Source: Catajapyx aquilonaris (Eukaryota). Taken from it: a stretch of 64,000 nucleotides of DNA. The notes under the pieces are model-generated. The model did no database searches. It was not told the DNA's origin and was given only the letters and a program-made list of their open reading frames with translations. The position numbers were made by a program, and so were the translations under genes. The stretch lies in assembly GCA_000934665.2 (NCBI GenBank), contig KZ538486.1, positions 62,001-126,000 of the forward strand, written 5' to 3'. This document shows, in pieces, positions 9,336 to 63,000 of the stretch. Every line of letters begins with the position of its first letter. The first letter of the stretch is position 1.

Positions 9336-10411
9336 CTATTTGTTTTGCATCATTTGATTGACCTTTTCCAGTACTTCTCCACAGCGGCCTTCAACTTTGA
9401 CTTCTGCATGTTTGTCTCCCCTAGTGGAGCCAATATTTAATATGGCTATGGGCTTCTTTGTTTCTGTGGCTCGAAGAATGTATCTATATGCAGAGAATAC
9501 TGACAGAGATGAGCCAACTACCATGAGGGAGTCGGAGGTATCCAGAAGCTGAAATACGCTGTCAACGCGGGATCGAGGAACATTATCACCAAAGAAGACG
9601 ATGTCAGGTTTCAGTATTCCTCCACATTTGGAGCATGGAGGTACTATGAAGTTGGCCACTTCCTCCTAGAAATAGAGAGTTATCCACCTAAATGTGTCTG
9701 CAGAGCTAGAAGAAACAAAGCTGACGAGGGGAAAACTACTAGGGATGATCAATGTGCAGGTGTGAGCAAGGGAAAAGCACAAGTTGCTACTCCTTAAAAT
9801 GTGTGAAAATGCACCGGTCTGAGATCGACATCACCATCTGGCCGAATGTTGACAGCCTCTGCGATTAACCTGGGATTCTCCTGTGTCAAGACCATCTGAA
9901 AGTCATCTCTCTTGGTCTTATCCCTGCAGGTCAAGCACACCACCTCATGTCCAGTCCCATGCAGCTCGATCACTCCCTGGCTGCCAGCCTTATGGTGCAA
10001 ACGGTCAACATTCTGAGTCACCACTCCTGTCAGACTCCAGTCATCCTCCCACTGTGCCAGAATCTTGTGTGAATCATTGGGCTGCACCTTAGAGAACCGG
10101 GGCCATCCCACAAAGTTGCGTGCCCAGTACCTCCTTCGCACCGCATCGCTTCGGACAAACTCCTGGTAGGTGACAGGCCGTCTGTTGCTGCGTGCGTACA
10201 ACCCCACTCCTTCCGACCTGTAGTCTGGGATGCCACTTTCGGTCGAGACCCCAGCCCCTGTCAGCACCATGAACCCCTGGCCTTCTGATGACCTTGCTAG
10301 GAAATGGTGCAGGCAGGACACATCAGAACTCGGTGTCTCCGCATATTTCGGTACGTATGTCCACACATGCCGGCTGAGTGCTGCCTGTGAGGCTACAAGA
10401 CGACGGTACAT
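9336..10411 (-). CDS. SIRT4: NAD-dependent mitochondrial sirtuin 4
   Basis: Exons 10411-9815 and 9665-9336. GAGVSTESGIPDYRSEGVGLYARS, RRRYWARNFVGWPRF, QNVDRLH, RPDGDV and LKPDIVFFGDNVP are SIRT4 signatures. Confidence 0.95.
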
Positions 10412-10877
10412 TGCTACGTACCCAGTTGCAACCCTACCGCAATTATGTAACAAAATGCAACAAAGTTCAAGTACGGCGCCATGTTACTTTAATGTGCAAT
10501 TAAGGAACGAACCAACCTTTTACTTTACATTCCCGTGGTTACTACGACCGTTACATCGTTTTTAATTTGTAACCTAAATGGCAGCAATTATTACAAAAAA
10601 TATGCATTGTTAATTTACATTGTGCAAAATTGCATCCGTTCCTTCTGTCAGCCTTCAAAATGGCGCCTGTTCCTTCAGTTAATAAATCTGACTAATTTCT
10701 GGTTGATTTGTTGATCACTGCAGCACATACTTTTAAGGCAAGTACTTTCATTGCATGCACGACTATATTAATGTACTCTGAATGGGTGTGATAGGTTAAG
10801 TGAAAATTGGTGATGAAATGTTGCAATGAATTGAATCAATTATTGTGGCAGGATCCGTGGTCGCAGGAGCAGAGAGG

Positions 10878-11790
10878 ATGACCCTGTATGGCCCAGCGGG
10901 GCCTCATGCCCAGCCCAACTTCGCAGGGGCCGTTTCCCAGTTGCAGCACTTGTCCCCAGCAGAGCTGCGTGAGTTTCTGAATGAAGATTCCAAGGTGGAA
11001 AACCTGGTGCGGGAGCTAGACCAGGTGAAGCAGTTTGAGCAGGAGAAGCAAGTGGTCATTGCCAGCAACAAGTCCATTGCGGAGTTCAATCTGGGAAGGG
11101 AACCTAAACTCAGTCAAGCCAAGCAGAAACTCACAGAGACGTACAGCCAGGTGGCGGATCTGCTTGCAAAGGTGCAGGAGAAGAAAGAGGAGTTTGGTGA
11201 GGACATGTGTAGCTATTCGGGGTTGGAGCTAGGGCCTACAACTCAAAATTTACAATCATCATTTGGCAGTAATTGACAGCTTGAAATTACTGTGTTTCAC
11301 AAACTAAAAGTTGCTCATATTCATCGTATGTGGCACTTGATGACTTTGTGACAATCAGATGCAGAATATATAGGCTTCAAAGGTAATAACCATGATTCCA
11401 ATGGATATTCCAGACAAGCTATCAGGGCAACAGTCATTGGACGCTACTCTCAACCTCCTGAAAGAAGCAACCTCTACGGCAGAAGAAGAATCAGATGCTA
11501 TAATTGAGCGCTTCCTACAAGGGTCGCTGGATGTAGATGCTTTCTTGGAAGAGTATCAGTCAAAGCGCCAGGTGGCCCACATGCGCCGTGTAAAATCAGA
11601 GAAGATGGTGGAACTCATGAGAAACCAGCAGCGTAGACGAGTGTCTGATTCAGCTGCCTTACCACCCCCACTCTATCGCAGACCTGCACCACCACCTCCA
11701 CAGTCTGGGCCAATTCCATACCCCATCAGGCCAGTAGGAATGCCCCAACCGTACCCAAGTTTTGGTATGGGAATGGGATGGCCACAATAA
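10878..11790 (+). CDS. VPS37: ESCRT-I subunit VPS37 (B/C-like)
   Basis: Exons 10878-11196 and 11414-11790. Mod(r) domain (ASNKSIAEFNL...AEEESDAIIERFLQGSLDVDAFLEEYQSKRQVAHMRRVKSEK) followed by a Pro-rich tail. Confidence 0.9.
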
Positions 11791-12489: not shown

Positions 12490-13431
12490 TTATGTGTCGC
12501 TACCGCCACGTGGCCCCCGAGGATTATCTTGATTAGCCCTTGCCATAGTAAACATAAATCCAACACTAAACAGAAATATCATGGTGAAGAGCACAGAATG
12601 AGTTTGATACCGCCTCCTCTCGTAAAATTCATACTGCCTCTAGAAAGGAAACAGTGACAGGTAATAATAATTGGTATTTCATGCAATTATTTCATATGTG
12701 GTTCTTCAATAAGTTTTACCCTCGTTTTCCACTTCTCCTTTGCAGTCGCTTTCTTGGCCAATGTATCACTGTAATGCTGCCTGGACCACTCATCAAAATC
12801 ATAGATTGTTGTGCGGCCAGACATTGGTGTTGAAAATCTACGTTCGCCTCTGGTCTTTTCCCTCTCTGCCCTCAGCGCTTCTTCCATGTTCTCATACGTT
12901 GTGGTTGCATGAGGAAAGGGTCCACCAGCAGTATGTAAAATGCCTTTATCATACATTTTGCGAAGGCGATGGCTTCCTAAAACCTGCAACAGAATGTAGC
13001 TTTTTCAGGCTATTCCATTTGGTCAAGATAAATTATTGCATGCATGTTATTGGTGATGGTGGAAAATCTGTCTATCTTGCACACAATTTGGATCGGAAAT
13101 GTGAAAATGTCATATTGGCAATTCTCATATGATCTATCAAAAGTTGTGCTTTTAATAAATATCAACACACCTCGTATGCCAAAGTAATCTCCCTAAACTT
13201 GGTAGCCGCATCCTCCTTCCCCTTGTTCTTGTCTGGATGGTACCTCATGGACAGCTTGTAATAGGCAGCCTTGATTTCAGCCTGCGTCGCCTTAGGAGTC
13301 AGTTCCAACGACTCATAATACCCTTTATTATTCCAGGCAGCACTAGTGAAGATAGTCCTCAAACAGGGGCCACGTTCCACTGTGCATCCGTAACTTGCTC
13401 TCCCCCAGTTACATCTCAATGAGTTCATCAT
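12490..13431 (-). CDS. DNAJC30: Mitochondrial DnaJ homolog subfamily C member 30-like
   Basis: Exons 13431-13171, 12983-12720 and 12639-12490. J-domain YYESLELTPKATQAEIKAAYYKLSMRYHPDKN, YDFDEWSRQHY motif and a C-terminal hydrophobic segment. Confidence 0.85.
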
Positions 13432-14051
13432 GAACTACCCTTCCTCAGTTAGATGTTTACCTTGTTCTGACCTGACAATGCACTAGTTACTCCCAAAATA
13501 ACTAGAAGTTCCTGAAAGTGGCAGCGTTGACTCCTGTGCTTCTGACTGAGCTGACTGACTTGTGACTAGCTATTAATTAGGAGCCAGTGAATATTATGTC
13601 CCAGTGAAGTAAGAAAGCAACTGCAGGAATTTCACCAATGGAGGACGCCATGTTGAGATCAAAACAAATGAGGTTCGGGGAGGCTGCGTCCAAACTCATT
13701 GGCATCGTCCGAATTGCACAGGGCACAATACGTCATCAAAATTGCGGGCGATTTGAATGATTCGGATGAAGTAATCCTACAGTATCAAGCGGTAACTAGT
13801 GTTGCAATGAGGCCTAATATAGTGCTGACCTTACGGCACCTTACGGCTATTACAAAAAAAAGTCAAAAGTATCTTCCTAGCATCACGGAAACAAATCAGA
13901 GTGCTTGTCATACAATATGTCTATTCAAGTGTGTAGGGCAACTTCTTGGTCCTCTAGCATTCATGATCATATCTGAAATTCAACTAACACATTCTTCAGG
14001 TTCACACTGCAACCACATTCAACCAAAGCAACTGCCATTTAGTGCATGTAA

Positions 14052-15460
14052 TCAGAGGCATATAAGGCATGTACTTCCAATAGGACCCCTTACACTTTTG
14101 ATCACTTGCACCTTGTAAGTTTTACTTTCTGGTGTTTCCTTCTGGATCACCAGTCTTGTTTGTGGCACATGCGCCCAGAAACTCCCAAGGTACACTCCAG
14201 ATATGTCCTTGTCTCCTTGCATTGGAGGCTGTCCCACACTGGCTCCTGAGTCCTTCTTGGTGTTGTTCACAACAATCACAGCCAAATGGTATTCTGATGC
14301 TAGTTGTTTGAGACATGAAGCTAGCTGTCCCACATAGCTCAGTCCTAAAATAATAATTATCTTGCAATGAAAATGGAAAGTACTGGTTACTACAGGAAAA
14401 ATACAAACCAATCCAGTAGCTTTCTCCTCCTATAAGAGGTGAAAATAGACACGGCAGTGAATCTATGATAAGAACTCGCAGATCTTTCACTTCGTCCTCT
14501 CTTTTATTCAGCCTTTCATGCAGCTGGCTTAGAAATGAGAACAACTTGAAGATCTCGTAAACTTTCACCACCTGTATTTTCTCCAGTACATTCTTCCATT
14601 CCTGTTTATTAGAGACAACAAAAACATTAGAAAATGAAGAAAAAAAGCTTCCCCTTTTTGACAACTAGACATTAAGGTGTGTAACTGTGTTTACACGTGA
14701 ATGATTTGATCACGCGATGTCATCACCGAGCGATGAATCCAACTGTTTGAGGTGAATCTAACAATCGATTTTCGCCTCAAACAATACTGGTACTTTGGTT
14801 TCGCAGCGATGTTATCGCTGACGATGACATCGCGGCATCAAATCGCTCACATGTAAACACACCTTTGGGTCTCATTTTGGTTTCATTCATTCGTATATTG
14901 TTCACATCGCACGTATGCCTACCTCACTATTTTCTTGTACACCCCATCTTCCAAGAAACTCACAGACACGAGCAGGTGATAAGTCTCCCTTGCAGGCTAC
15001 GTAGCAAACAGACCTATTGTGATGTTTGGCTATGTGGGCAGCGACAAACATGCAGAGCTGCGACTTCCCTGCTCCCTGGCCGCCACAAATCTCAGTGATC
15101 TCTCCTGTCAGTATCCCACCTCGAAGTACTTTATCAAGCCTGCAAGAAAGAAGACAACCTAGAAAAAAAGCACTGTGTAACAAACCCAACCAAGCACCTG
15201 TCAAGTCCTGTCTTGAACTTGGCCACCTTGCTGACCATCCTCTCAAACAAGTCACATCCATTGATGACAGGAGCCGAGTATTTGGCAAGAAGTTCCTGCC
15301 TGACCTGCACCACCTGGCTGTAGGGCAGCCTGGAGGTCACAATGAGGGTGTTGGTCTCCGCATTCAGGTAGTCCTGTGCAGTGGTGATCCTGGCCAGCCG
15401 GAGGTTCTCCACTGCCGACGGTGTCAGCGATGGGCAACTCTCCGAAAACTTACGAAGCAT
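14052..15460 (-). CDS. RAD51D: RAD51 paralog D (multi-exon)
   Basis: N-terminus CPSLTP...RQELLAKYSAPVINGCDLFE, Walker A GEITEICGGQGAGKSQLC, Walker B LIIDSL, and LG..WAHVPQTRL typical of RAD51D. Confidence 0.9.
14675..14864. mobile_element. Short MITE in a RAD51D intron (PIF/Harbinger-like ends, uncertain)
   Basis: TGTGTTTACACGTGAATGATTTGATCACGCGATGTCATC pairs imperfectly with GATGACATCGCGGCATCAAATCGCTCACATGTAAACACA; AGG...CCT termini. Confidence 0.65.
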
Positions 15461-16061
15461 GACCGATTACAGCCCGTTAAATACCTGGAATTTCCAGTTG
15501 TCCAGAGCCTGGACATCAACACAGAATCAAACACATGGTCGTCCAGTGTACGGTGGCGACACCTACGAAAAAAATTGTTTGCAAATTTTAGCCTGCAGAT
15601 GGCACAATTATCGGTACAATTTTCCCGCCGATTTTGAATGTTGTTTGTTTGTCCAGGTAACATCAAGCAGAATTCTGCTTGGTGTTACCGGGACAAACAG
15701 CAATTTTATCCTACCTCCACCTGCAATTGTGACGCAATGCAAGAAATAACTTCCCACGCCTTCTCATTAATGTGGCTTTATTTCACAACTTGTTTTGTAT
15801 GATGAATTTCCTACATTCGTACATATATTATCATACTCCCAGCTCTCACACGTGCCATAACTTATTTCAGCTTGATCCATGCAGAATTCCACACTTGTCG
15901 CTCATTGAAGTTCAGCTTGAGGTAACATAAAGTGACACTTTCTGCTTCTGAACAATTTGTAGGTACCGGTACGGTATGTCATTTTCTTAAAATTGACAGA
16001 AGGGGAACACATTCTGAAGGTACCCATCACAAATTTAATGTGCTGCACATTATTGATCATA

Positions 16062-17498: not shown

Positions 17499-18092
17499 TA
17501 TCTGCAATTAAAAACACACCGTATGCAATGAGAGACAATCTGCTGCATTATCTGCAGCAAGCACAGTTTTTTTCAAGTTCTCACCACTTGTGTACCTAAG
17601 ATGTCTTTCAAAGTTATATCTCCCTCGTCACTCTGCAGTGTACCCTGTCCAATGTTACACGATCCCACGTTGGAAGGACGATGCCTAATAGTTGAGCTCC
17701 GCCTCGGCAAGCCTCACCAAAAGCCTCATGCAAAGGAGTCGACAACAATACGTCTCGTCGCCATGTTCTGCCAAGTAGTTATAACTTATAGCTGTTTGCT
17801 TAAAAATATTTAGTCGTTGATATGGCAAACCGTCGTTTAATTAAACGCAAAACTTATAGAGATAATTGTAATCTACATTAGTTCACACAAATATTGGATC
17901 GGTGTTATAAATATGTGCAGTAATTATGGCATTTATGCAATAGCAGCTATGCGACTTTGTTGACACGCACAAAGATGGCGGAGTTTAGCTTGTGAATTTT
18001 GCAAATGAATTTTGCCCATCCTGATTCTTCTGTCATATTGAGTACAGACGTTGTGGAAAAGCTTTTCTACCTGTTGCTTTGCGTCCGTAGTG

Positions 18093-21000
18093 ATGGACAG
18101 TTGGAGCACCGGCACATACCGCTGTTGCGATCCCATTAGAAACTTTAGGATCAGGTACTAACCGCTCTTCTTCAGAACTGACTGCACCACTTCCTTGCCT
18201 GTGAGCACTCTTGTATTTCTTGTGCACACTCATTCTTTTGATCGCCCGCGTGCTTAACATTGGACTGAGAGAATGAAGAAGTATCCGAAGCCAACGGCGT
18301 TGACGGACAAGCTCCACAGGGGCTTGGTGCTGGGGTGCGTGGGGCTGACGGTGTGGGGAATGTACATGGCTGGATGGAGGGTGTATCGGTACGCCACCGT
18401 CATAAGGCCCATGCAGCAGCAGAAGAAGGAGGAGATGCTCCAGGAGGGGAAGGCGCCTGACGTGGAGGAGCTTAAATACTGACGTGTGCCTATGACACTT
18501 GCAGTGTAGTTTGTGATTAGTTTAGCTAGTGTATCATAAAAATATATATAGTGGGGGATGTGTTGTGCTTGGGGTCATGGGTGGATCCTGCCTGTTCAAC
18601 TGAGGTTTTTGTTAAGGCAGGTATCACGGACCTCAAGGTACTGCTGCATTTACTTTCCCACAAATTTTATTTTGATGCCTCTCTTTATTTGCAGAATTAA
18701 ATTGCAGAAGGCCAGACTGGAATATGTTTCTGCCCACGAGTCAGGAGAGAAAGGTGATGGGGAAGACATTCCGTTGTCAGAGTTGGATCATACAGATCAA
18801 GAGGTGGAAGAAAGGGAATTTACTTGGCAAGAGAAAGTATTCAGGTACTGCTATTGCTCTTAACATACCTCATGCCATCCTGTTGCTTGCACTCCATTAC
18901 TACTTGCCTTCCTGGAAGCACAATTTCTGTCAGATGTACAGTCCCGCTCATAAAGAATGGTACGACTCTATAGTCGAAATGTTTATCCTGATTATCGAGC
19001 ATTATTCCCGACCTTAATTCGACAAAACCCTATGGACAACCTTTTCTGGACCTCTGGTGACTTGTATGACCCATCCCGATTTTTAAATAAAAGTTTTAAT
19101 GACCAAAATGTTCAACCCGGTGCAATGCTTATTTAGATTTGATGTGAATTTCCCCCCTAAAATTTTCCTACTTAGCTTTGTTATTCTTTTCTCTTTTTTA
19201 TTTTATTTTAATTCCCTTTTCCCGGACTTCCTCGTGACTCCTAAAAACGTGCTGGCAACCCAGGGGTTGGGGACAGAATAAACATTTCGTCCATATAGAG
19301 TCGTACCATTCTTTATGAACGGTACTGTACATCCCTACATCCCAGCCATTAGTGGTTTCCCATTATTTTGTTTATACATAAAAATGGTATTTGATGACAT
19401 ATTGTATTTGATACTAGGGTAAATAAATATATTTGATGGAAATAATTTGAATTAAAAATTTTAAGCCACAACACTGGATTTTCACCAGTTTGGTTCCATC
19501 TATTATGCTTGCTTACTTAAATACATACACCATTTGGCTGGTACAGTGCAGGGGCAATAGGAGTCTTAAGTCACAGTTCCAAACTAATTTAAAGCATATG
19601 ATTGGACATATCTAATGACAGTTGATTTCATTTTTCTACATGAGTATGGGAATGAATATTTTTTTAATGTTGTGACCACAATATTGTTCAAATAAGCCAT
19701 GAATGATATGTTGTTATGAAATAGCCCAAGGGAGATACACAAATACCAACAGCTGAGCAACTGTCATACTGCCCTGGAGGAGAAGTATCATCAAGATGTC
19801 ATGGCCATGGAAAAAGACCAAGATCCTCGGAGACTTTTCAGTTATGTTGATGCAGACAGCTACATTAACTCGAAAGAGGTTAGGCTGTTATTTTTTCCCC
19901 CCCATTACTCAACTAATGCACTCTCTTCCATTTTCATTGGCAGGTTTCTTACAAGGTTACAACTGATTCAAAGGAAACACCATCATTTCTTGTGGAAAAA
20001 ATGGCTGGACTGCGACAGAGAAAAAACACAAAGCAAAGGTACGCATTCAGGTTTGTTATTTTCTGACAATATGTCTGATTGGAGAACTATTATAGGGAGC
20101 CTGATTCATTACAAAAACCAGTCATTGGTGAAGAAGACTACATTAGTGATGTGCAAATCATGTATATAATGGCTGATTTGAACCCAAAGTCTGTGTAAGT
20201 TAATGGCAGTATTTTGCACATATTTAAAGTCACGACTCTCATTATTTATTGCTTATTATTTATCATTAGAGGATACCATGACAAGAGGAAAGAGCAAGTG
20301 CTGTGTCGACTGGAATACAATTCCAAGGGTGTCTTAATTGTTTACCCAGATTTCAACAGTCGTCAAGCTGGGCACAAAATTCAATTGGACACTGTCACAC
20401 GAGATGTGTACGAGTACTGGGTGGAGCATGCATCGGGGGATATTAATGAAAATGAGAGAGCTAAAGAAAGGAATGCTACCAGAGAGGTAAAATCATCCGT
20501 ACCTGATGGTGCAACAAAATATTGCTCATTGCTGTAATAATATAATATCCCGAAGGTTTGTTGTAAATAATGATGATGATACATAAATGAAATTATTTTA
20601 CACGAGTTTTTGCCTACAATTTATGCCATTAATCATTATAGCTTAAGTTATTTATCATCAAGCTTCATTAGCATAAAAAGGGGGGTGACCAATGTCCCTT
20701 CAGTTTTGATCTTGGCTATTGTACGCAGAATTGCCTACCAGTAATATAACCAGTTATTGACCTACTTGCAGAATTGACCTGGAACATCATGTATTATTTT
20801 CAGATTTATGAAAGGAGTGCTGAGCAGTTGCAGAGACGCATTGGCAGAGTTTTTGATACCCCTCCCCCTGGGAAGCTGTTCCTGTCAGTCTCAGGAGAGA
20901 TTTCACTGGCAAAGGACTATGAGTATGAGCCTCTCCATGTTCACTACTACATTGACTTACCCAAAGGTAAACCTCATGTGATGTGCATTGCGTTACTAAC

Positions 21001-22001
21001 TTACTTTAAAAAAATTATTTATGGCACATGCATTTGGAACTCCTGATTGGTGAGAAGATTGAAGCTAAATCATATATATCCAACATTACCATAAGCTCTA
21101 GATTCCAAGTAATCCAGCATGAGCCATTTGTCATAATGACAATTACCCTACTACAATTACCAATTTCAGGACCTCATTATTAATCATGATGAATTTTTGA
21201 TGTCAGTTACATGCATGTTGTGAATTTGATCGTGGACTGACTGGTATTTTCGTTGGGGTATGATAGGTTGGACTAAAAGCGCAAACACCAAGCTCGTTGG
21301 AGTGACCCAGAGCTGCAACATTGCTTCAGACCATGATGGAAGAGAGGTTGCTAGGTTTGGCTTCCCCTTTACCTTAGAGCTGACCCTTGACCTGGGTGAT
21401 GGTGAGGAGAAGACAGCAATTCCAAAGTGGCCTCTTTTGTACGTTAAGGTTGCATCTCTGGACTCTTGGGGAAGATATAGGATAGAAGGATATGGCCACA
21501 TGCGAATTCCCAGCACTCCTGGATCCCACAACGTCGGAATTTCTACATGGCGACCTACTGACACTTCATTGTTTCCCATTGGGGAAATGAGAAGGTTTTT
21601 CATTGGGGGTTCACCAGAGCTGGAGGATATCACATACGTTGGAGTCCCACATGCTTTCGAAGTATGTACTTCTCTCATATTAGGAAGGATAACACACTCG
21701 AGGTTTGTAAACTCATACTGCATTTATCTGCTTTTAGGGAAAGTACCTGAGCCGCCTTGGCTTCCGGACTGTAGGTAGTGGAAGTGTCCTTGTGCACATG
21801 AATATTCTTCATCAGTCCCAAGCTTATGTTGGATTGGACAAGGACAGAGGGTCAAGACACATGATGTTGGCAGAAAAGCTGAGCTCAGGAACCTTATTGC
21901 ACAGTGTCAATGCCGTCCTAGAGGCTTACCGTAGAGCAAAAGAGAGACTGAGCAGGGCTAAGCAGGGACTTCCAGAACCTGAGGATGACAAAGATGACTG
22001 A
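18093..22001 (+). CDS. MKS1: Meckel syndrome type 1 / B9-domain ciliary transition-zone protein (multi-exon)
   Basis: First coding exon 18093-18154 (MDSWSTGTYRCCDPIRNFRIR, like YRSRDPVRNLRLR) splices in frame to 18695-18844 (..FTWQEKVF). Later exons give RRLFSYVDADSY, SGEISLAKDYEYEPLHVHYYIDLP and the B9 motifs WPLLYVKVASLDSWGRYRIEGYG and RRFFIGGSPELED. Confidence 0.92.
18273..18482 (+). CDS. COX14: Cytochrome c oxidase assembly factor COX14-like, nested in an MKS1 intron on the same strand
   Basis: Uninterrupted 69-aa ORF with a single TM segment (DKLHRGLVLGCVGLTVWGMYMAGWRVYRY) resembling COX14 (LTVYGGYLCSVRVYHY). GC-rich coding-like composition. Confidence 0.8.
   Translation: MKKYPKPTALTDKLHRGLVLGCVGLTVWGMYMAGWRVYRYATVIRPMQQQKKEEMLQEGKAPDVEELKY
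18939..19327. mobile_element. Tc1/mariner-type MITE in an MKS1 intron
   Basis: TA|CAGTCCCGCTCATAAAGAATGGTACGACTCTATA ... TATAGAGTCGTACCATTCTTTATGAACGGTACTG|TA; ~50-bp TIRs and a TA TSD inside the palindromic target GATGTACATC. Confidence 0.9.
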
Positions 22002-24396
22002 TGTGTTTTGATTTTATATTCCTGGCAAGCCAAGTTGAACGTGGCTGTATTCCCAGTGGCACAAGTAATAAAATAATTCTGGACGTGTGTTCACATTCTA
22101 TTGGGTTCATTTATTACTTCCATGGGAATTTTATACTCATTATCAGTTATTTCTTCCACATATGGGTTCTGCAGGGCAGATAGTGCAAGGGCTGTACATA
22201 ATGCAGACAGAGCCTTCTTCACACTGCAGGTCACATGATTGAGAATCTGAAAGGATTATTTTTCTGGTTTGATGGTGACTCCTCCTTTACTGCAATTATA
22301 TTACTGCTTATGGTATTACCTTGGGTATTACTTTGAGCCAAAGCTGCAATTGCACACCATGCAATGATGAATAGTATGCTAGCCACTATTGAGACTGGCC
22401 CTGAAACTATAAAAGTGAAATAATTATTCAGAGGCCTATGTGTATATTCTGGTATGAATTGCAGGTGCAAATAATATAAGGAATCTTTTGTAATGCTTGT
22501 CCTTGTTGTTATCAACAGGCCTGTATCCCCAGGTATGCAGGCCCCCCCAGTCGACATCGACCTGGTTCTATACTGAGAATTCGCTGATTGCTGTGTAGTA
22601 TAGTATTATTGCTGCCATAGTCTGAAAGCATTACTAAGGAGCGATGCTCATATTGCAAGACTTAGAAGATGGTTTCACAACCATCATTGAAACACATTGC
22701 ACACACCTGGCGCACACATCCCATTTCCCATTATGATCACTTTTCACTGGCCACCTTAACCAGGTGCTGTGCATCTGTTTGTCAGCAACCTAGCATAGCC
22801 AGTCCAATCTGTAAGCAGTTGTCATCTAGTTCAAATGACATGTGGCTATGCTGTTTCAGAAAGAAGGCATGACCAAGAACCTCTTACAACATCTGGGTTA
22901 TTATCCCCTTCCTCTCCCCTCTCACCTTTGTGAGCATCTGAGCAGTGCTGTAAAGGTTGGCCATGTGAGATGACTAGGAATGCAACAAGTCATTCTTGTG
23001 GTACTTTCATTATCTCTGGCTATCCTTTCAATTAGCGGCAAGATGTGATGTAACTGAATGAATGAACTAATGAACTTTCCAGCATCTAATGTATTATAAT
23101 GTGATTCTGCTTTTCTCGGGGCAATAGCAGAAGAATTTTTTTTAATGTGTAAAATATGAACATCAATTATTTAATCACAATATATTTCAAGTGAGGAAAA
23201 GTCGCCATGCAAAATTAATAATTACACAAAGCCATGAAATAAAGTGGTGGTATCTAGATCTGAATTTTGTTTAGTGTCTCTCAAGCATGCTATTTTTCAT
23301 GGAAAATTTTATACCAATATTTTACCTGCGTGAAATGATTTTTTGGAGCATTATGAGGATTTCTTCTACGAAAATGACAAACCTGAAACCATCTTCCTGC
23401 AATTGAAGCTTACTAGAATGATGTCTCTTCTCAGCTCTGGCTGGCAGGCAACTGAGACTGTGCTCCATAACATGTGTGTTAGATAATTGTAATTCCCCCG
23501 GATATGCACTGTACTGCGCGCCTTATTGATAGATGGTTGAATGCAATAGTGTAGTCACTAATGACTGTAACCTTGAACAGTCATAGTGAATAAAAACAAT
23601 TTGCAGCATCATGGCAGGATCCATGTACAATGTACAATACAAATTCTCTTCTTCAGTCATGGATTACCGTTCTCCCTAGGCAATAGTTTCTGGCCCTATA
23701 ATCCTCCATTGGGTTTCAGCAGAAGCCTTAGTGAACAATATTTATCCTTCCTGAGAAATACCGGCTTTGATTCGCAAGTTATTATGGAAAATATCGAGAA
23801 ATATCATCAACTCATTGGGAAATTCTTATTTTACCAGAGGTGTGTTCTCTGACCATCTGAAAATAATTTGTACACATGGATTACCTAATTGTGGCAAGGG
23901 ACATCCGCTTCCTATTTTACGCAAGCAAGGACATTTCTCAGTCAGACTGCATGAATAAAGATACCAGAATGTATGCTGTAATGTTGCTAATGGTGTCACT
24001 GAACAATAGCATCTCTAATCAAGATCTGTTTATACTGTATAATGTGGCAAGGCAATGCTGCATAATATGGGTAATTCTTGATGTCATGGACAATAGTAGG
24101 GTCTAGGTCAGAGGAGACATGAATGCATAGTATACACCTGTGTAACAAGTCTAGCTGACACTATCATCTGAATAATTGCTATGTTTTAACTGCAAAGCAA
24201 TGTCAAGGTGGTGAGACTCATGATGTAAGGGTGGAAATGAGACACTGTGATTGTCACATTCGCATAAAATTTAAGAGCAACAAACTCTTTGCTGTTGTCG
24301 GGCGTGTTTTTTAGTCAATAATTTTCTCTCAACAGTACATATTTCAGGCTGGTGTAGTACCTGTAAGTTCTGTTGATTCTCAGTGATACTCCAATA

Positions 24397-32294: not shown

Positions 32295-32849
32295 GGTGTA
32301 CTGATGAAGAGTTGACACTCGACTGACTTCTGGCGGTTAGTTTAATATACTGATGGTATACCTATTTGCATAATGCTTCGACGTCATTCCAAGTGTGACC
32401 GCGTTTTTTTTGTTATCTACCTATTTAGATAATGGCATTGCACTTGCACGGCAGAGACAGGAAACGGCACGACATGCAGTAGCCTACTGGAAGTGTAAAA
32501 TGAAACTGAACGATATTAATCGCCAACTTAGTCAAAGACCCTGTCCATAAATTCACAAAATTATTTGGTAATTTAATTGCATCATTGTCAATGCCAACCT
32601 TCAGAAATCTGTGGTTTGGCAGCCGCTTTTGTACGGGCTCTTGCATGCTGTATTTTTGTGACGGGAAACGACCGTCTGTGGTTTCCCCCCGGGAAACACT
32701 CTCTACGTATATCCAAGGCTATTAAAATTACTAACTATGTAATAGTTTCCTGGGGAGTAAGCTATCACGACCACCAGTGACGTCACTAACTGCCAGGAAA
32801 GTTCCCCTTTACAAAATATCCATTAATTTGCACAAATTTTTGAAACATG

Positions 32850-50404: not shown

Positions 50405-53400
50405 TTATAAACGTTTAATAAGCTTCTCTAGTTTTTTAATCCGACTTGATTCGTGTTCTGGGCTTCCGACTGCTACAGCTTGACTGGTGCTGACCCCAGA
50501 GCTGCTTATGGCAGAGTTGGCAGGGAGTTGAGATCGGAACAACTCAATCAGTTGGTTCTGTTCATTTCGTTTTAAACCCTACATGAAAAAATGGAAGGTA
50601 TATTAAAATGAGTTCATTAATTCAATATAGCCATCATATACCTTCATGTCAAGCACTTTCTGCAGCTCTGATGGATCTGATTCAGGCAGTAGCTTTGCAA
50701 ACTGGTCAACATATGTGCGTGGATCTTCCAAGGGAGCCATCACAACTTTGAGTATCATTTCTGCTTTTGTCATTCCTTTCACCACTATCTTTGTATAGCT
50801 GCCAAAAAAACACATCTGTCACTTTGTACAAAATCCAACTCTCCTCCATTCTCTCACCTGGCAGGTGCTTTCCTCAGCACTTGGGAGCCTAGTGATGGCA
50901 AATCCAGTAATACTGTCTTTAGCATGTGGGTGTCAAGGAGCAGCTGCTCTGCCCCTACTGTGCTAACAGGCTTGCACTTGTACACAGTCTGGATAAACTT
51001 GGGAATAAATGAGCTGCAAAACGAATATCAGAATGAGACGACACTAATTACCCTGTTTGTTACAGATTAAATTGCATACTTGACATTGGCCCCAGGCTGA
51101 ATACTCACCTGGCAAACTTAATGCAGAAATGTGTGAAATATTTCCTTGAAGATGCCAGGTAGTCCCTGATGATTGGTATGGTCTGCTTCAAGTGCGCAGT
51201 GATGGAGGAGACATAGGTACTCTGGTCCCCCACCGAGTCCACATTCTGCCACTGGATCTTAGACATAGCAGTGAGAGCAGGCTCACAAGCAGCTTCAAGA
51301 TCTTGCACCAGAAGCTGGGTACATGTCGAGATTACGCTGTGGAACACGTCTTGTTCTCCGCCCATGCTTATCCTGTCTGCCAAGGGAGGGTCCACTTTCT
51401 CTTTCAATTTTTCTTCCAACTGCTGAGTTGTTTCCAGGGAGTATTCAGCTGTTATTAGTATACTGGAAAAGAGGAAATAGTGAATGGGCCATGTTAACAT
51501 TTTGAAATTCATTCCATAGAATTAAACAGCACTCAGTCTCAATTAGTTATCAGGTCAAATGGTGATAGACAAGACCTACCTGCAAATTAGAAACTGCTCT
51601 TCTCTTGTAAACCTTGGTACTTCCCCTTCCTTCAGTAAGCTCTGAAAGTTTTGTATGAGCCCAGCAGTGGATAGATCACGCAAGTCACGGGTTAGACTCG
51701 TCACTGATGCCAGTGAGCTCGGAGCTGCCAGTCTGTCAAAGTACAATAAGTGAGATCCAGGCTTTCCTACTATGAGTTATATCTTACTTTGGAAGGTTGT
51801 TCTGTAGGACTTTCCCTGCATATTCCCTCAAATATTTCTGGAATGTGGTGGCCAAACTGTACATTGGTAGTCCGGTACTCAGCTGGGTACACTGGACCAT
51901 ACACTTTTTATAGAAAATGAATAGGTCAGCTGACGAGGATAGTACCACGCTGCCCTCTGCTTCAGGGTGGTGGCGGAGGCCATTCTGCCTGAAGTCTTGG
52001 ACAAACTTGTCAATCAACTCTGCCAGATTCCTGCATAAAAAGCAAACACATTCTTGGAATGAATAATAATCAATTCCACTACTAATCTTGAAAATTTCTC
52101 AACTTCATGGATGTGGTAGACAACTGTGCGACTCAGATTCAGCATCCCTTTCAATACGACAATCTTCTCTCTGCATAAGTGAAGGTTTGACAAATAAATC
52201 TCGGAAGCGATGCTTACTTATCCTGACTCTCGATGTATATGTGCAAGTGTGGCTCAAAACACTTGCTGACAATTCCATGGAATGGCGAGGTCTTTGGCTT
52301 CATGTTGACTTCCTCCCCCTCCTCCTCTTTCAAATCCTGAGCTTCACCTCTGAGGTCCTCTTCAAATGGATTGGTTGATTCTGACTCGGGTTCCTCAAAT
52401 GGATTGGAACCATGCTGCTGTATAACCTGGATCAATAATTAGTAATTGAGGTTAGGTCGCTCCCAATTCTTGCCTTGAAATGCTGAACTGACCACTGGCT
52501 TGCTGGCTCTTCTGCTAGGAGCCCTTCCCACATCACTTGATCCTTCAGCCAGTGTAACACCAGTAAATCTCCTGCTCAGCAGTGTTTCAAAGTTGGTGGT
52601 TCTTTGTATGGCAAAAAGCAGTAGTTTCACATCTATCTCATCTTTCCTCCTGGCCATGATTCGCGTTAAATCAGATGCAGTGACTTCGCAAAACTCCACC
52701 GCTATCCTTTCACTGACTTCCCAATCAGGTGGAAACATCCTTCCCAGTTTCTCTTCAAACTCAATCAAGTGACGCTTTAGCCAAGTGTAGCGGCGGTCAA
52801 TCTTGTCAAGCCAGGCACAATCTTCATTCTCATTGAACAGGTGCTTGTATTCTGCCAGCTGGAGGCCTATGAACCATTTCAGCAAGTCACGCCTGCCAGA
52901 AAAAAAGCATGATGTGACACTCACTGGACAAGCACATTTAGACAGTACATATTGAAAAATGAAATACCTACTTGACTTTAGGCTCCAGTTCAGACACCAC
53001 AAGACAGGCCTCAGCCATTGACTTGGTAGGAACAAAGTGCTTTGAATTGGGCCCTGTCAGTGCATCATGAAAATCAGCTGTGATCTGCTGACCAAGGTCA
53101 CTTCGTATCTGCTGGACCTGGTCAGAGAGCTGCCGGATCTGTGGGATGGCCAGATAATTCTTGAAGTGGTCTAGGACATTCATTACTCCCTGGAGCAAAG
53201 TAGCTGCTTGCCCATATTGCCTGTGTTTTGTATGTGACCTAGGAAAAATTCACATTGCATAAGTTTTCAAATTCAATAAGTACATGAAGAAACCATGGGC
53301 TCATTGGATGGAAACAAACAAGGCCTGCCCGCTTACTGAAGAGTGTCGACACCTCCAACCAACATATGAAGGTGGTTAAGAGTGGTAATGGCAGTGGTGA

Positions 53401-53997
53401 GGTTCCGCTTGGCGCAATCAAGCTGCTTGATGTCCCTGGTGATCTCCCTAACCATCTGTTCCGACTGCTCCGCCTTCACCTTTATATCCTGGATGCGTGA
53501 AAACAGCTGGATTATGGCAGCCTGAGCTTCCTCCAGAGCTGCCCTTCCATCCTTCCCGGCATGTGTCTGCCCCCGCACAACAGTCCGTATCTCATCATCA
53601 ATGGAATGGATCTTGGAACGCATGCTGTTGATAACCTCATCGATATTGGACAGGGACTGCTCCGTGGGGAACAGCGAGTTGATGTAATCCACCGAGTTGA
53701 AGTCAGGGTGGTCCAGCGGATCATCACTCGGCAGTACCTAACAAAATCATCAGCATTACAAGCGAACAGTTGTCTTCATCATTGCCCAACATCAAGAGCT
53801 ATGCCAACATGTATTATTTTTTGTACTGTGTTCTCGCTTTATTCCTTTCGAATTCATTCTCCACTGTCAACAAATGATGCCCTACATGTCGGCCAGTCTC
53901 TCACCTGCTCAATCGCGCTCTGCACTTCGGGCGGGAAGGATATGAGCGCGGTCAAGTTGTCATCGAACAAGTCGTCATCCTCCCTCAGCGCCGCCAT
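50405..53997 (-). CDS. VPS53: GARP/EARP complex subunit VPS53 (multi-exon)
   Basis: [89 protein letters not shown]-terminus KLEKLIKRL*. Confidence 0.96.
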
Positions 53998-55503: not shown

Positions 55504-58500
55504 TTACAATGGTGGCCACGACAGTGAAGCTTCATTGTGAATTGCTTCGGGTAGCCATTGCAAGTATGCTGAGAGGAGATCTGAAAGAGACAAAGAATTA
55601 GATGCAAGTTGCTATTTTTCTCCATGATTACTTACACTGAGGATCTTTCTCCCATTCTTTCCTGAGAGCCTCACTGGTTCTGATGCCTTGATTCATCAGA
55701 GATTTTAGAAGGATTTCTGTCCTCTGTTGCAATCTATAGTTAATGGTCCATAAGTAAGAGTGTTAGTGTAACTTGAACAAGGGGTCAGACAACAACAGGA
55801 AGAATGTGTCTGCTAATGGAAAATAGCACCACTCTGATGTATTAGTACTTACTTGGCCCAGGAGCGGATCATAGTGACAGGCACAGCCAACAACAATTCT
55901 TTATACTTGGCCAGCTTTGGAATCACACTCCCCTCAAGCAGGAAGCAGGCAAACCAACGATACGCCTCAGGGCCCTCAGGAAACTCCACCTTAACAGGGT
56001 TTGGCAACTGCCATGCGGCACGTCCATATGTGACGTTGACAAGACAAACAACGTGACCAGCCTGAGCATCATACTGTGGAGGTGGATTTTCCAAAGGTGG
56101 TGACATCTGGCACAGGCTGGGTGCAAAGATGGGAAGCCATTCAGGTTCGATAGCTGTCACCCCCCTCATGTACATCTTCTTGGTCTCATAGACTTCTTGG
56201 TAGACAACCCAGTCTGGTGGATTTGCCTTCAACACTGACGTGTAGTGAAGAAAAACAGGTTCTTCCAACTCAGAACATCTGTATGCGTGCTTCCATTTGA
56301 GCTTGTCCTCCCCTGATTTCAGTTCATCAGGAGAAACTCGCATTGCAACTTGGTCAGGCAAACCAGCTAGAAGAAGCTGGCGCAAGAGCTTCGATTGGAG
56401 ATCAGTTGGGGGCGGCATCTTGGGATCCACGCACAGGTTAAGGTGTGGAATAACAAGATTAGCCTCGTTGGTCAGCTGCACCCGGAGCTTTCGTATCTCC
56501 ACCATGGCCTTGTACCGGAGCCCATTTGCTTCACAGAATTCTGGACAGTATGACATGTACTCTGCAGCACCAACCGCTCTCAAGAGTACCATGGGGTCCC
56601 CTGGAAAATTAAAACAAACCAGTTAATATACTGAATAACATTGACCTTTATGTCTGTGTCTCCTGCAACATTAGCACATGAAATGCTTACCCAGCAAGAG
56701 TGAATTTCCTTTCCCAGCCCATGCTCTCCTGGTCTGTGCCCACTTTGCCCTCAAGCCCTTCCTTGACTGAGTCTCAGTCCCAACTGGAGCTTCAACCAAA
56801 ACTTCAGGCACAGACAGTGCAGCCACCATGCACACTGTCAATGGAAGCAGGTCATATTGGTGTGCAAGTGCCAGCATCTTTCCAAACCTGGGTGCCACTG
56901 GAAAGGCAGCCATCACCTGCCCTAGGGGAGTCACACGAGATGCCCATGCTTTACGTTTGGTATCCCTGAACCTGCGAGTCTTTCCTGGTTGCTCCAGTGC
57001 CCCTAACAACATGAGCTTCTTCTCAGCCGCCTGGAGTTGAGCTGTGTCAGGAGGCGATGGAAATGGAAAGTTCACAACGCGGTCTATGTGCATTGACTTC
57101 ATCTGAAGCATTAGATCATCTAGCGGCCTGCGCACCATTTCAGGCTCAGCAAACTTGGGAAACTCATCATTAAACACAGCAGATGAATACAAGCGGTAGC
57201 AGTGGCCTGGACCAGTTCGCCCAGCCCTGCCAGCCCTCTGATTGGCGGAAGCTTTTGAAGTCCATGTCACCTGGAACACTGACACACCCGTCACCTTGTC
57301 ATAGAACTTGGTTTTGACCCTACCACAGTCAACCACATATTTTACATTGGGTATTGTCAGAGATGTTTCTGCCACGTTGGTGGCTACAACACAGAGTCTT
57401 GAGCCATCTGGTGGTGGCCGAAAAACTTTCTGCTGCTTGTTTGATGGAAGCAAGGAGTACAGAGGTAGAACCCACATGGGCTGTGATAAACCTCCAGCAC
57501 GTAACATATCGTCGTCGTCATCATCAGAATCAATAACTCCTTCAACCTGTTCAGTGTCAACTAAGTCAGCTTCAGCATCATCTTGTGGTAGCAGTGAATA
57601 ATCATCCAAATTAACCTCTGGAAGTCTGACCTCTCCTTTTGACGGCAGCTTCTTTTTCTTACGTACGTTTTGCATGGCCTCAAGTGCACGTTCCATCTCC
57701 AGTTCAACTTCGTTTCCGTCATAATCTGACTCTTCATCATTCTTGGTGATCTCTGATTTTTTGTCCTTCGTGTAATGGAATGGGAATGTCTTGCGCAGCT
57801 TTTTAACCAAATAGTTGACCTCCTGCTGACCTGTCAGAAACACAAGTACCCCTCCATCTGGCAATTGTCGGTGGATTTTGCATACCTTCTTGTAAGCCTC
57901 ATCAGCATAATTATCTATTGGAGTGTGCTTATTGAAATGGATTGTGACTGGAAACTGTCTCGATTCAACAGTGATCACTGGAGGGGTGGCCTTGAACAAA
58001 TGCCTGTTCTCGGTGAAGTCCTCAACTCTGAGTGTGGCCGACATTATCACCAATTTGAGAGGGTCACCCATTTTCTTCCTCAATGGAACCACACGAGAGA
58101 GGAGGCCCACTAAAATGTCAGTGTATACGCTACGCTCATGTGCTTCATCAATAATGATTACGCTGTATTTTTGTAGCAGGAAGTTCTTCTGCATTTCCCT
58201 CAGAAGGACACCATCAGTCATGAACTTTATCCGTGTCTTGTCTGTAGTGTCACCTTCAAACCTTATCTGGTACGAAACTTCTCCGTCTAGGCCCATCTCA
58301 TATGACACTCGGTGGGACATTGACACAGCTGCAACCCTGCGTGGCTCAGTGATGCCAATGCGCCTCCCATCAAGTGCAAAACCAGCTTCATACAAGAACT
58401 GGGGTACTTGGGTAGTCTTCCCACTGCCAGTCTCACCAGCCAGGATGACCACGGGGCTTTCTCTGATTGCTTCCATGATTCGTTGCTCCTCTGCCAAGAT

Positions 58501-59640
58501 GGGCAGTTTCAGACGGGATTCCTGAATTGATGACTGGCGATGGACTGTAACAAACACAGCAGGTTTGCATGGAGGTTTAGGCTTTTCAGGTGTTTTGGGG
58601 GCTTCAGAGGCAATGGTGGCCACTTGAGTTTCAGGTGCAGTTTCAGGTTCCTTCGGAATTGGAGCTTCTTCCATTGGTTCAGGAATATCCAAGGGCAATT
58701 TTTGGACATCTGGATCATCAGATTCATCAGATTCATCCGAGTCACTTGAATCCTGCATATTTGAAAATGTGTTACTCAAGTGTTCTGCAAAATTCACCCA
58801 TAATAATTAGCCAAAAGCAGTGTAAATTTCTTACAGCCAAGAAATAATTGCTATGTCAAAAACATTAACCAAGTGTGCATTTGAAGTGAGTGTGATTGAC
58901 AGGCCAGAAGAACAGGGTGATACTTCACTACACAGTAAGCTTAGAGAAGGTGCATTATTACCTCAAATCCTACAATGGATGCGTCAGTTGCTTTCCCTGC
59001 TTTTTGTTCAGTTTCCTCCCACTGATCAACTCCTTTCCGTCTCTTATGGGCCCCTGCAGTGCTGCTAATCTTTCTCTTAGATGTACGGCTCAAATCCTGG
59101 ATTGGATTAAATTCAGCATCTTTGTATTCCGCCAAAACCTTTCGCCTTCCCTTGGTCTGAACATCAGCAATGGTAGTGTACAGAGCCAACTCCTCTGGTT
59201 TCGCTTGAACTTCAGACAGTGCCTGCAGTAGCTGGACTCTCTGAAATTTCAAAATAAGCCAATGGTTACCACCGAGTCACACTACACGTCCACAAGACAA
59301 GCACCTTTTCTTTCTTCTTCTTCCGCTCCACGACTTTTTCCAGCAACTTGCGCTTCTTTTTTGAAAGCACCCGTCCTGTGCTTTGCGCCAGGGCCTTCTT
59401 CTTTGTGCTCCGCTTATCCGAGGGCAGCACCAAGGCATTGCTCGCATCATACTGCTTCCGCCCCACATCCAGCTCAAGCTTGATCTGAAACCATGAACCA
59501 CAAGCATTACATCCTCTGCAGATATCTCATTTCAACCTCAGTCGACCTGACCAACTGACCTGCTTGGTAGGGGTGTCGTCCACCTGCGTGGGCACGACCT
59601 GGCGGGCCTTCCAGTTGAACCTTTTTCGCAGCCGACCCAT
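55504..59640 (-). CDS. DHX37: DEAH-box RNA helicase DHX37 (kurz/Dhr1)
   Basis: Starts MGRLRKRFNWKARQ; YDASNALVLP; GETGSGKTTQVPQFLYEAG; DEAH; SATLR; QRAGRAGRTGPGHCYRLYS; ~2-kb central exon. Confidence 0.96.
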
Positions 59641-60095: not shown

Positions 60096-63000
60096 ATGGA
60101 TTCGTACGACATATTCCGCAAGCTGACTGCTGGAGTTCGTTTCAACACGACCAAGTTCTACAATGATGCGCAGAGGTTTCAGATGGTCAAGTCCAAGCCT
60201 GTGGTCGGGCCTGTCTTTCCCGTTATTAAGGATGAGCCGAAGGACGAGAAGCCCGGTAGGAAGAAGAAGGAGAAGACAAGGGAGCAGCTCATACAGCAGC
60301 ATAAGGAAAAGGTGCGAGGATCAGCTTCTTTTTATCCGCCTCAAGCAGTGTACATGTTATGGAAATGTGTTGAAAGAGGGAACCAATTCACAGAGCTACT
60401 TCAGAATTTTTCACTCTGAAAAGTGAACTGACAAAAACTACACGTTATTCCTGTACAGTACATGCACCACCATGATAATTTCACAACATTACTTTCTTTC
60501 ACAGATATCTCACTTTCGCCGCTCTAACAGAATCACAGTTGATGGAAGCGACTTACCCAACCCGGTTGAATCATTTTCTCAATTAGCCGAATGCCATGGA
60601 ATGTCACAGCAACTGCTAAAAAACATTCTGAGTGCTGGCTATGACGCACCAACACCAATCCAAATGCAGGCGATTCCAGTGATGCTGGATGTATGTTTTG
60701 CTGGCCAATTACTGATCCTATATCAATGTCGCAGTATTCACGTGACGTTTATTGATATTTCAGAGGCGTGAAATCCTGGCCTGTGCGCCTACTGGTTCAG
60801 GAAAGACAGCAGCATTTTTGCTTCCATTGTTGCATCAGTTGAAAGGACCACAGAAGAAGGGATTTAGAGCAGTCATTGTTGCTCCAACAAGGGAATTGGC
60901 CAAACAGATACTGAGGTAAGTTGAAATTTTTTCTATTGTGAAAATTAAGTTATAACTGCTTGTCCATCTTGTAGAGAATGCGAACGTCTGGCAGAAGGAA
61001 CTGGATTGAGAGTTCATTACATTCGCAAAGCTGCGGGGGATTCTACTGGAGGGAAAAAGTTGAATGAAAAGAAATTTGGTGAGTAACCTTTTCATTGTGT
61101 CTGCTGTGTGCCATTTAGCTGATGCATTAATGTAACATTATGGTTGATTGGTAATGGTTGGTTAGTATGGCGAGTAATGAAACAGATTGGTTTCAACATA
61201 TGAGCAACTGCAGTGATGCAAAACCAATATTACACCACTTATGCAGGGTGGTCGGTAAATGGCGGACAAGCTTCAGGTAGCGAGATTCCTTGTGAAAAAT
61301 CAGTATATGGAAGTGAAGGTCATATTGCTCTACAAGGCCTGGTTAGGGCTCACGAGGTCCCCAAAGTTTGGGCCAAATCATGACGTCACATCCGCCCGCG
61401 AAATTCAAACACTGCCGTATCGCTTCTGTCTGCGGTGTGTTACCAGGCGTTGCCATGTTGACATCCCCCACATGATCACCAAACAATGGAACCGTTTAAA
61501 CTCGCCGGGACGTTGCCAGGAACTCGGCGACGACGGTATGGCAATGCCTGGCAACGTCCCGGTGAGTTTATACGGTTCCATTGTTTGGTGAACATGTGGG
61601 GGATGTCAACATGGCAACACCTAGCAACACACCGCATACGGTAGCGATACGGTAGTGTTTGAATTTCGCGGGCGGATATGATATCATGATTTGTCCCAAA
61701 CTTTGGGGACCTCGTGAGCCCTAACCAGGCCACGTAGAGCAATATGACCTTCACTTCCATATACTGATTTTTCACAAGCAATCTCGCTACCTGAAGCTTG
61801 TCCGCCATTTACCGACCACACTGTATTACTGACAAGAGGCAATCATTTTCAGAGCTGTTGTAAGCTTTTGATGAGACGTCTTATTTAGTCAGAAGTAAAG
61901 TACATTCTGAATTACTGCTGGCATGGAAAAGAGTGGCAAGGTTAACATAATACCTCAACTGGAAAGTGATCTTATTCTTATTTCAGACATTTTGGTGACT
62001 ACTCCTAATCGACTGGTTTTCCTTTTGAATCAAGAGCCAGCGGGAATAAGTCTTAAGAAGTATGTTTTCATTCTAATGCACATGGAACATATTGAACTTT
62101 TCTGCTGATTCCATTAATGGTGGCTTTTAATGCATTACAGTGTGGAATGGTTAGTAGTGGATGAATCAGATAAGCTCTTTGAAGCAGGACGCACTGGGTT
62201 CCGAGACCAGCTGGCGATAATTTACAAGGCATGTGACTCGGCTGGTGTGAGGAGGGCCATGTTCAGTGCAACCTTTGCACATGAAGTGGAACAGTGGTGT
62301 CGTATGGAGCTGAACAATGTGGTCATGGTTAACGTTGGTGCCAGAAATGCAGCTGCTGACCTGGTTCAGCAAGAACTTACATTTGTTGGAAATGAGTCTG
62401 GAAAACTTATTGCTTTTCGTGACTTGATTCGTAAGGGATTAGAACCTCCAGTGCTCGTGTTTGTCCAAAGCAAAGACCGAGCTAGGGAGCTCTTCAATGA
62501 ACTTATTTATGATGGGATTAATGTTGATGTCATCCATGCAGAGAGGACTCAACTGCAGGTAGACAGCTACGGTTGTAAAATATGACCCAATATGAGGAGA
62601 TAGTTGTATGGCCATAAAATTTTACATGCATTGTTTTTGCAGAGAGACAACACTGTGAGAAGCTTCCGACGTGGCCAAATTTGGGTCCTAATTTGCACTG
62701 AATTGATGGGTCGTGGCATGGACTTTAAGGGTGTTAATCTGGTAGTCAACTACGACTTTCCACCAACTGCTGTTAGCTACATTCATCGGATTGGACGTAC
62801 TGGCCGTGCTGGCCGTCCTGGAAAGGCTGTCACTTTTTTTACTGAAGATGATGTTATCTGTCTTCGCAGGTTAACCCCCATTTTAATATTTTCATTCAAT
62901 GTAAATTACAAGCTTATCTGCATGTGGGAACCAACCTGTACTGGATGGTCATTGGGTAGGAGAAATTATCATAACTGCCGGCAGGAATTTGGTGGTGGTA

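Follow-up and report, generated by a model that had tools for sequence, protein, structure and literature searches.

A COX14 open reading frame nested in the first intron of MKS1 in Catajapyx aquilonaris, downstream of a 5' splice site that overlaps a branch-point consensus

Introduction

Mutually exclusive splicing by steric hindrance is classically represented by exons 2 and 3 of alpha-tropomyosin, where the branch point lies too near the 5' splice site. Genes that share their space are another kind of close arrangement: more than one in ten mouse and human genes is reported to contain a nested gene, and co-expression of the two to alter the isoforms of the host (PMC11694760). In case of CPNE1 and RBM12, two unrelated proteins are made from one promoter, and a choice between splicing and polyadenylation at the end of the upstream gene has been proposed (PMC2568002). 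Here we describe a stretch of 64,000 nucleotides (nt) from Catajapyx aquilonaris (assembly GCA_000934665.2, contig KZ538486.1, positions 62,001 to 126,000; hereafter the window, with positions counted from its first letter), in which a complete gene for COX14 lies inside the first intron of a gene for the ciliary transition-zone protein MKS1 on the same strand, and in which the 5' splice site of that intron also spells a perfect branch-point consensus. COX14 belongs to the COX14/C12orf62 family of cytochrome c oxidase assembly factors, as defined in PMC3334569. We did not find the pairing of COX14 within MKS1 in the literature: judged by titles and abstracts, the papers naming both are gene lists, and of those on COX14 with bicistronic none deals with it.

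Results

The host gene occupies 18093–22001 on the + strand and was modelled, by tblastn with five MKS1 proteins and by reading of the sequence, as nine exons encoding 532 amino acids with no internal stop. The model aligns end to end with eight animal MKS1 proteins, exon 1 included, at 38.0–43.1% identity, and this full-length colinearity is that of the MKS1 type, with its long N-terminal region before the B9 domain, and not that of the short B9D1 or B9D2. The B9-C2 domain (PF07162) scores 99.9 bits (cut-off 27) in the open reading frame (ORF) at 21230–21775, and a search with the B9-C2 exon returned 233 proteins at E ≤ 1e-5; among the 120 listed, the named ones are MKS1 and the others are unnamed. 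Exon 1 (18093–18154) begins with the start codon at 18093–18095 and is 20 codons and 2 nt long; it can be aligned to the N-termini of the eight animal proteins and shares with them the motif YR..DP..N..I; its ATG stands in a good context, with G at −3 and G at +4. The acceptor of intron 1 (tttatttgcag, 9 of 11 pyrimidines) ends with the AG at 18693–18694, and the frame is kept across 18154/18695 into exon 2 (18695–18844), which carries the motif FTWQEKVF and ends at the donor cag/GTACTG. The remaining exons lie at 19725–19878, 19944–20038, 20096–20194, 20270–20486, 20804–20966, 21267–21661 and 21738–22001, and an AATAAA follows the stop at 22066–22071. A possible micro-exon at 18617–18637 (21 nt, ttaag/.../gtactg) would keep the frame, and it is probably not used, as other MKS1 proteins have no insertion there. 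Judged by alignment and domain content, the host gene is MKS1.

The eight donors of MKS1 (GTACTA, GTACTG, GTTAGG, GTACGC, GTAAGT, GTAAAA, GTAAAC and GTATGT) all match the consensus CAG/GTRAGT at 6 of 9 positions, and three of them start with GTAC. Its eight acceptors have between 4 and 9 pyrimidines out of 11, and in five of the eight introns the best branch motif lies 27–30 nt from the AG.

The nested ORF starts with the ATG at 18273 and ends with the TGA at 18480–18482; it is a single exon of 69 codons and is intact. Residues 2–56 cover positions 1–58 of the 59 of the Pfam profile COX14 (PF14880), at 63.3 bits and E 1.9e-17, where the cut-off is 25 bits. A word-indexed protein search with COX14 gave no candidates, and 55 homologues (E ≤ 1e-3) then came from an exhaustive search among 1.84 billion representative proteins; the best has 62% identity, and four reach E ≤ 1e-10. 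Most of these proteins are 59–101 amino acids long (eight of the 55 have 114–172), and the start methionine, D.LH.G, the hydrophobic core, R.Y.Y and RP are conserved in the alignment. The best 19-residue hydrophobic window covers residues 17–35, with a mean Kyte-Doolittle value of 1.38. A role in complex IV assembly and a mitochondrial location are predicted from membership of the family. No second COX14-like ORF is present in the window. In addition, the G+C content at third codon positions (GC3) is 0.84 in COX14, 0.46 in MKS1 and 0.60–0.72 in three neighbouring genes, while the intron has a G+C content of 0.36. The contrast between COX14 and MKS1 fits separately tuned expression, high for the former and low for the latter, so that COX14 appears to be tuned to higher expression than its host. 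On the − strand, a frame of 162 codons free of stops (18033–18521) overlaps COX14 and MKS1 exon 1; it has no Pfam match and is most simply explained by the G/C-rich third positions of COX14.

The COX14 ORF (18273–18482) lies wholly inside MKS1 intron 1 (18155–18694, 540 nt), both on the + strand, and its ATG is 118 nt downstream of the first MKS1 coding exon. The first-pass annotation of this DNA had named both genes, had nested one in the other on the same strand and had made its proposal depend on conservation of the 69-residue ORF; the domain scores, the full-length alignment, the coordinates and the homologues with their conserved start and motifs bear it out on each of these points. Its locus ended at 18695, and here the intron is real while the coordinate needs a correction, since exon 2 starts at 18695 and not at 18696, and that end is thus already an exon base, the first one. 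As COX14 sits in the intron that is removed for MKS1, a transcript with its start upstream of 18093 can become one or the other messenger RNA (mRNA) but not both, and an either/or logic is thus trivially true, by layout alone, for any such transcript. Moreover, COX14 begins so shortly after MKS1 exon 1, and on the same strand, that two separate promoters would have to lie almost in one place.

The same arrangement was looked for elsewhere. A scan of metagenome contigs with COX14 as query gave 294 pattern matches, none of which was confirmed, and a scan with the B9 profile gave 80 loci, in none of which a COX14-like ORF was found with a COX14 profile built from 56 sequences (best E 6.7). The N-terminal part of MKS1 is clear in only four of the 80 (L001, L002, L003 and L037), all of them intronless, and two others (L005 and L006) have a weak match to MKS1 exon 1 (E 0.02–0.04). 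All are distant (24–37% identity). What these loci show is only that the linkage of COX14 and MKS1 is not universal among eukaryotes.

MKS1 exon 1 is followed by the donor CAG/GTACTAAC (18155–18162), whose GT is at 18155–18156 and whose bases 18156–18162 are TACTAAC, so that a donor and a branch consensus overlap. As a donor it matches 6 of 9 consensus positions, the same as the other MKS1 donors. Behind it comes the run CCGCTCTTCTT, with 10 pyrimidines out of 11, and then CAG at 18173–18175 (together 18163–18175), a putative acceptor whose AG is 97 nt before the COX14 ATG. From the branch A at 18161 to the G of this AG there are only 14 nt, against mostly 27–30 nt in the MKS1 introns. If it is left unspliced, MKS1 exon 1 is read for 22 codons up to the TAA within TACTAAC. 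This layout had been described before in the first-pass annotation, including the end of exon 1, a distance of about 100 nt to the COX14 ATG, the 22-codon upstream open reading frame (uORF) and the shortness of the branch spacing, and it is confirmed by direct reading, translation and measurement; the same is true of an acceptor-like CGTAG that ends at 18090, just before the MKS1 ATG. RNA structure around the intron-1 donor does not exceed that of shuffled sequences (z 0.62).

How unusual this combination is depends on the scale at which it is regarded. TACTAAC occurs four times on the + strand of the window and five times on the − strand; a second copy within MKS1, at 20994–21000 in intron 7, is 27 nt after the donor and 266 nt before the acceptor, with no acceptor-like site nearby. 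In the window, 55 sites have 10 or more pyrimidines out of 11 before YAG (0.43 per kb per strand), 32 of them on the + strand, and 17900–18800 contains none but that at 18175. When TACTAAC was required to have, no more than 35 nt downstream, a YAG preceded by 9 or more pyrimidines out of 11, one case was seen in the 64-kb window against 0.17 expected, and at least one was obtained in 15% of 150 first-order Markov simulations. The pair is therefore not significant window-wide, and only its placement, 97 nt before the ATG of a nested gene, is notable, which makes it modest evidence. Furthermore, GTAC donors are usual in MKS1, and GTACTAAC therefore needs only CTAAC after an ordinary donor.

Upstream of MKS1 there are ATGs at 17913, 17926, 17935, 17949, 17975 and 18005, and thereafter only those of MKS1 (18093) and COX14 (18273). 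This cluster followed by scarcity suggests that transcripts may have their starts past about 18005, and a donor-like site at 17992 would then fall outside them. That site (ctt/GTGAAT) agrees with the donor consensus in 6 positions of 9, the best of 11 GT sites in 17950–18092, the other ten of which match at 2–4; in the ATG-poor leader at 18008–18092 no usable donor was found, as its eight GT sites match at no more than 4 of 9. By hand reading, use of 17992 would retain the upstream ATG at 17975 and open a uORF of about 38 codons that ends 15 nt before the COX14 ATG; either spliced form would carry a uORF from this ATG. Nor is there a yTnAy branch motif within 50 nt of the CGTAG that ends at 18090. 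A mini-intron at 18042–18090, which would put the ATG at 18005 in the MKS1 frame, was rejected: its donor matches at 3 of 9 positions, it has no branch motif, and the start at 18093 already fits the MKS1 N-termini. Between the two start codons, the 177 nt from 18096 to 18272 are free of ATG, as are only 2.2% of the 177-nt windows on the + strand; this fits a COX14 leader that starts anywhere past 18095 and equally a shared transcript with the 22-codon uORF.

Other elements of this region are less specific. The motif AAGATGGCGG at 17972–17981 (+), in the putative promoter or leader region upstream of MKS1, is mirrored by AACATGGCG at 17759–17767 (−), the two being divergent and about 210 nt apart. 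Motifs of this ATGGCG type stand near the 5' ends of genes and occur also at about 10480 (−), upstream of SIRT4; they may be a promoter element of this organism, and the pair may mark a divergent promoter shared with a gene on the − strand. A candidate RFX X-box near the MKS1 start (17816–17829) was rejected, since it has 2–3 mismatches to what we take to be the consensus and since such matches are seen 180 times against 209 expected. In addition, a direct repeat (17982–18006 and 18519–18543, 76% identity over 25 nt, core AGTTTAGCT.GTG.AT with 14 of 16 positions matching) encloses MKS1 exon 1 and COX14, with one copy in the leader upstream of MKS1 and the other in the 3' region of COX14, just before the hexamers described below. 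This repeat could be due to chance.

At the candidate ends of a COX14 transcript the signals are as follows. The initiator-like hexamer TCATTC at 18230–18235, a weak candidate for the start, lies 41 nt before the COX14 ATG and is the only match to TCA[GT]T[CT], which we assume to be the initiator consensus, in 17900–18280. On the 3' side, two hexamers of poly(A) type and no others precede exon 2, namely CATAAA (18535) and AATATA (18541). A GT-rich stretch comes after them (18551–18574), and the candidate 3' end is thus placed at 18535–18574, presuming that the variant hexamers and the downstream-element rule that we apply hold here.

Elsewhere in the window, Pfam matches on stop-to-stop frames gave VPS37/Mod(r) at 10830–11787 (+), DnaJ at 13165–13434 (−), a RAD51D-like gene at 14055–15466 (−), VPS53 at 52442–53737 (−), a DEAH-box helicase at 55852–58806 (−) and a DEAD/Helicase_C gene at 62118–63002 (+), together with a weak match to SURF4 at 32374–32547 (+) that has 22 bits and is below the cut-off. 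A SIRT4-like gene lies at 9339–10483 (−), and its matches, among the 120 listed, are mostly from arthropods, with at most 60% identity. The genes are compact, with introns of 57–76 nt. Three ORFs with the WAP four-disulfide-core domain (44470–48079, −; 34.8–42.4 bits) form a small tandem family, and an open frame of 493 codons at 42529–44007 (−) has no Pfam match and lies in the most G+C-rich and most skewed part of the window (GC 0.485, GC skew 0.16). No Rfam family was found in the window. The perfect palindrome GTTGCCCTGGCAAC at 1761–1774 is the only match without mismatch in the window to the presumed RFX X-box consensus, and it may mark another cilium-related gene near the start of the window.

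Discussion

How the two genes are expressed from this arrangement is a matter of interpretation, and we weigh several readings of it. The best of them, which we hold with about even confidence, is that COX14 is an ordinary same-strand nested gene, a working single-exon gene with its own nearby start and a 3' end inside the intron. Its mRNA would start at one or more sites of its own just past the MKS1 start codon, between 18096 and about 18240 with 18230 as candidate initiator; a start past 18095 would give it a leader without upstream ATG. It would remain unspliced and end at a weak, non-canonical poly(A) signal at about 18535–18575. The MKS1 transcripts would start somewhat upstream, at about 18010–18090, read through the weak poly(A) site and splice out 18155–18694, thereby discarding COX14; a weak intronic signal would allow some of the polymerases on to MKS1 exon 2. 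GTACTAAC would then be a GTAC-type donor that spells the branch consensus by coincidence, and the AG at 18175 would not be used. The starts of both transcripts, the 3' end of COX14 and the idle acceptor-like site are what we infer from the order and strength of the signals.

Several observations weigh against this reading. There is no canonical AATAAA, nor an ATTAAA, between the COX14 stop and MKS1 exon 2 in the hexamer scan. TCATTC is the sole promoter-like element near COX14, and with 1.64 matches to its pattern per kb of the + strand, about 25% of regions this long would hold one by chance. With its 10 of 11 pyrimidines, the acceptor-like site at 18175 surpasses all eight real acceptors of MKS1. 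And the ATG-free stretch of 177 nt exceeds what a short leader of COX14's own would need, which hints at a long leader overlapping MKS1 exon 1.

The foremost alternative we consider improbable. Here both mRNAs would share a start at about 18010–18090 with no splicing of the leader, and the intron 18155–18694 would be either spliced, giving MKS1, or left in place with intronic polyadenylation, giving COX14; in the latter the 22-codon MKS1 exon would be a uORF, with re-initiation at the COX14 ATG 111 nt later. A spacer of this length is sufficient for re-initiation, the uORF is short, and the MKS1 ATG is the single ATG in 18008–18272, the 177 nt before the COX14 ATG being free of it to a degree reached by few windows. 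Furthermore, the weak donor (GTACTA) and the weak poly(A) variants fit a balanced competition, and unrelated genes that share a promoter and a 5' exon are on record (PMC2568002). Against this, a uORF is an odd handicap for COX14, whose GC3 suggests high expression, and the good context of the MKS1 ATG means that most ribosomes would translate the uORF.

A second group of alternatives takes the overlap itself to be functional. That GTACTAAC truly serves in both capacities, with U1 committing the transcript to MKS1 and U2 to the AG at 18175 and hence to COX14, either through a weak cis donor that is not recognisable or through a spliced leader, seems to us unlikely; one transcription unit would then switch physically from a protein restricted to cilia to a housekeeping protein and back. 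Its more definite form, which the first-pass annotation put forward as possible, is still less probable, and we think it very unlikely: a shared non-coding leader exon would be joined to 18091 for MKS1 or to 18176 for COX14, with exclusion of U1 and U2 at GTACTAAC as the toggle. The part of this proposal that stood is the overlap of donor and branch consensus. The branch consensus is moreover perfect, it is followed by 10 of 11 pyrimidines and CAG at 97 nt from the COX14 ATG, no ATG intervenes in 18176–18273, and it is accepted that splicing can become mutually exclusive where a donor and a branch point close by exclude each other sterically (e.g. PMC7969005). The part that did not stand is the cis-splicing switch. 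No usable donor is at hand, the GT sites of 18008–18092 matching at 4 of 9 positions at most and the better one at 17992 keeping the upstream ATG at 17975; without a convincing upstream donor the switch is short of its key part. In addition, the acceptor at 18090 has no branch motif, the 14-nt spacing is atypical for MKS1 introns, and the overlap is cheap where three of eight donors start with GTAC. The sequence lends no support to a specific U1/U2 toggle.

Trans-splicing of a spliced leader would do without any cis donor, and we give it a similarly slim chance. The orphan acceptor at 18175 would take the leader and so free a COX14 mRNA from the MKS1 precursor. A strong acceptor without an upstream donor is what this would look like, and spliced-leader trans-splicing is reported in copepods (PMC4664967), so that the orphan acceptor could be a trans-splice site; the SIRT4 of the window groups with that of a barnacle (91/87), and its named hits are mostly from arthropods, which makes the organism look arthropod-like and possibly crustacean. 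However, the barnacle grouping, in a tree of 28 rows, joins two long branches and is possibly an artefact, and there is no copepod or amphipod among the 120 listed SIRT4 matches. Neither a spliced-leader RNA nor another Rfam family was found in the window, and the starts of SIRT4, RAD51D and DnaJ have no pyrimidine-rich acceptor before the ATG.

Finally, the reading of the COX14 ORF as a copy that is silent or decaying, such as a retrocopy, with the working gene elsewhere in the genome, would agree with its lack of introns, its position inside another gene's intron, the A/T-rich run at 18537–18549 after its 3' region and the absence of a canonical poly(A) signal before exon 2, and is hardly credible given that the ORF is intact, that it keeps the start and motifs of its family and a GC3 of 0.84, that no target-site duplication surrounds COX14 alone (the sole direct repeat also encloses MKS1 exon 1) and that the window holds no other COX14-like ORF.

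What the locus means depends on which reading holds. If the two genes merely share space, as in the nested-gene reading that we prefer, the locus adds another host/nested pair, of importance chiefly to annotation: a gene of 69 codons in a single exon within an intron is readily overlooked, and MKS1 could be given a wrong 5' end. If the start is shared, a single transcription unit would make, as alternatives, a mitochondrial factor needed ubiquitously and a protein that only ciliated cells need, and the locus would offer a compact natural model for splicing versus intronic polyadenylation, or for donor versus branch occupancy.

Among the known systems, the protein itself is unremarkable: like the COX14/C12orf62 family it is small, with a single hydrophobic segment and a conserved start, and only its genomic position is unusual. 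In the cases of mutually exclusive splicing by steric hindrance, as here, a donor and a branch consensus come together, and on the same bases U1 and U2 could not both bind; those cases, however, have to do with a choice between two coding exons within one gene, whose flanking donors and acceptors are known, whereas here no donor can be named for the second acceptor and the two outputs would be different genes. CPNE1/RBM12 resembles the readings with a shared start or with cis-splicing, and its shared non-coding 5' exons are documented by complementary DNAs and by RT-PCR (PMC2568002), while in COX14/MKS1 no shared exon or donor can be identified. There is a likeness to host/nested pairs, in which, as here, the small gene lies complete in one intron of the host and transcription of the host crosses the nested gene and its poly(A) site, here a putative one. 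Compared with such pairs in general, COX14 is distinguished by starting only 118 nt past the first coding exon of its host, on the same strand, and the overall layout is best read as a further example of this known arrangement.

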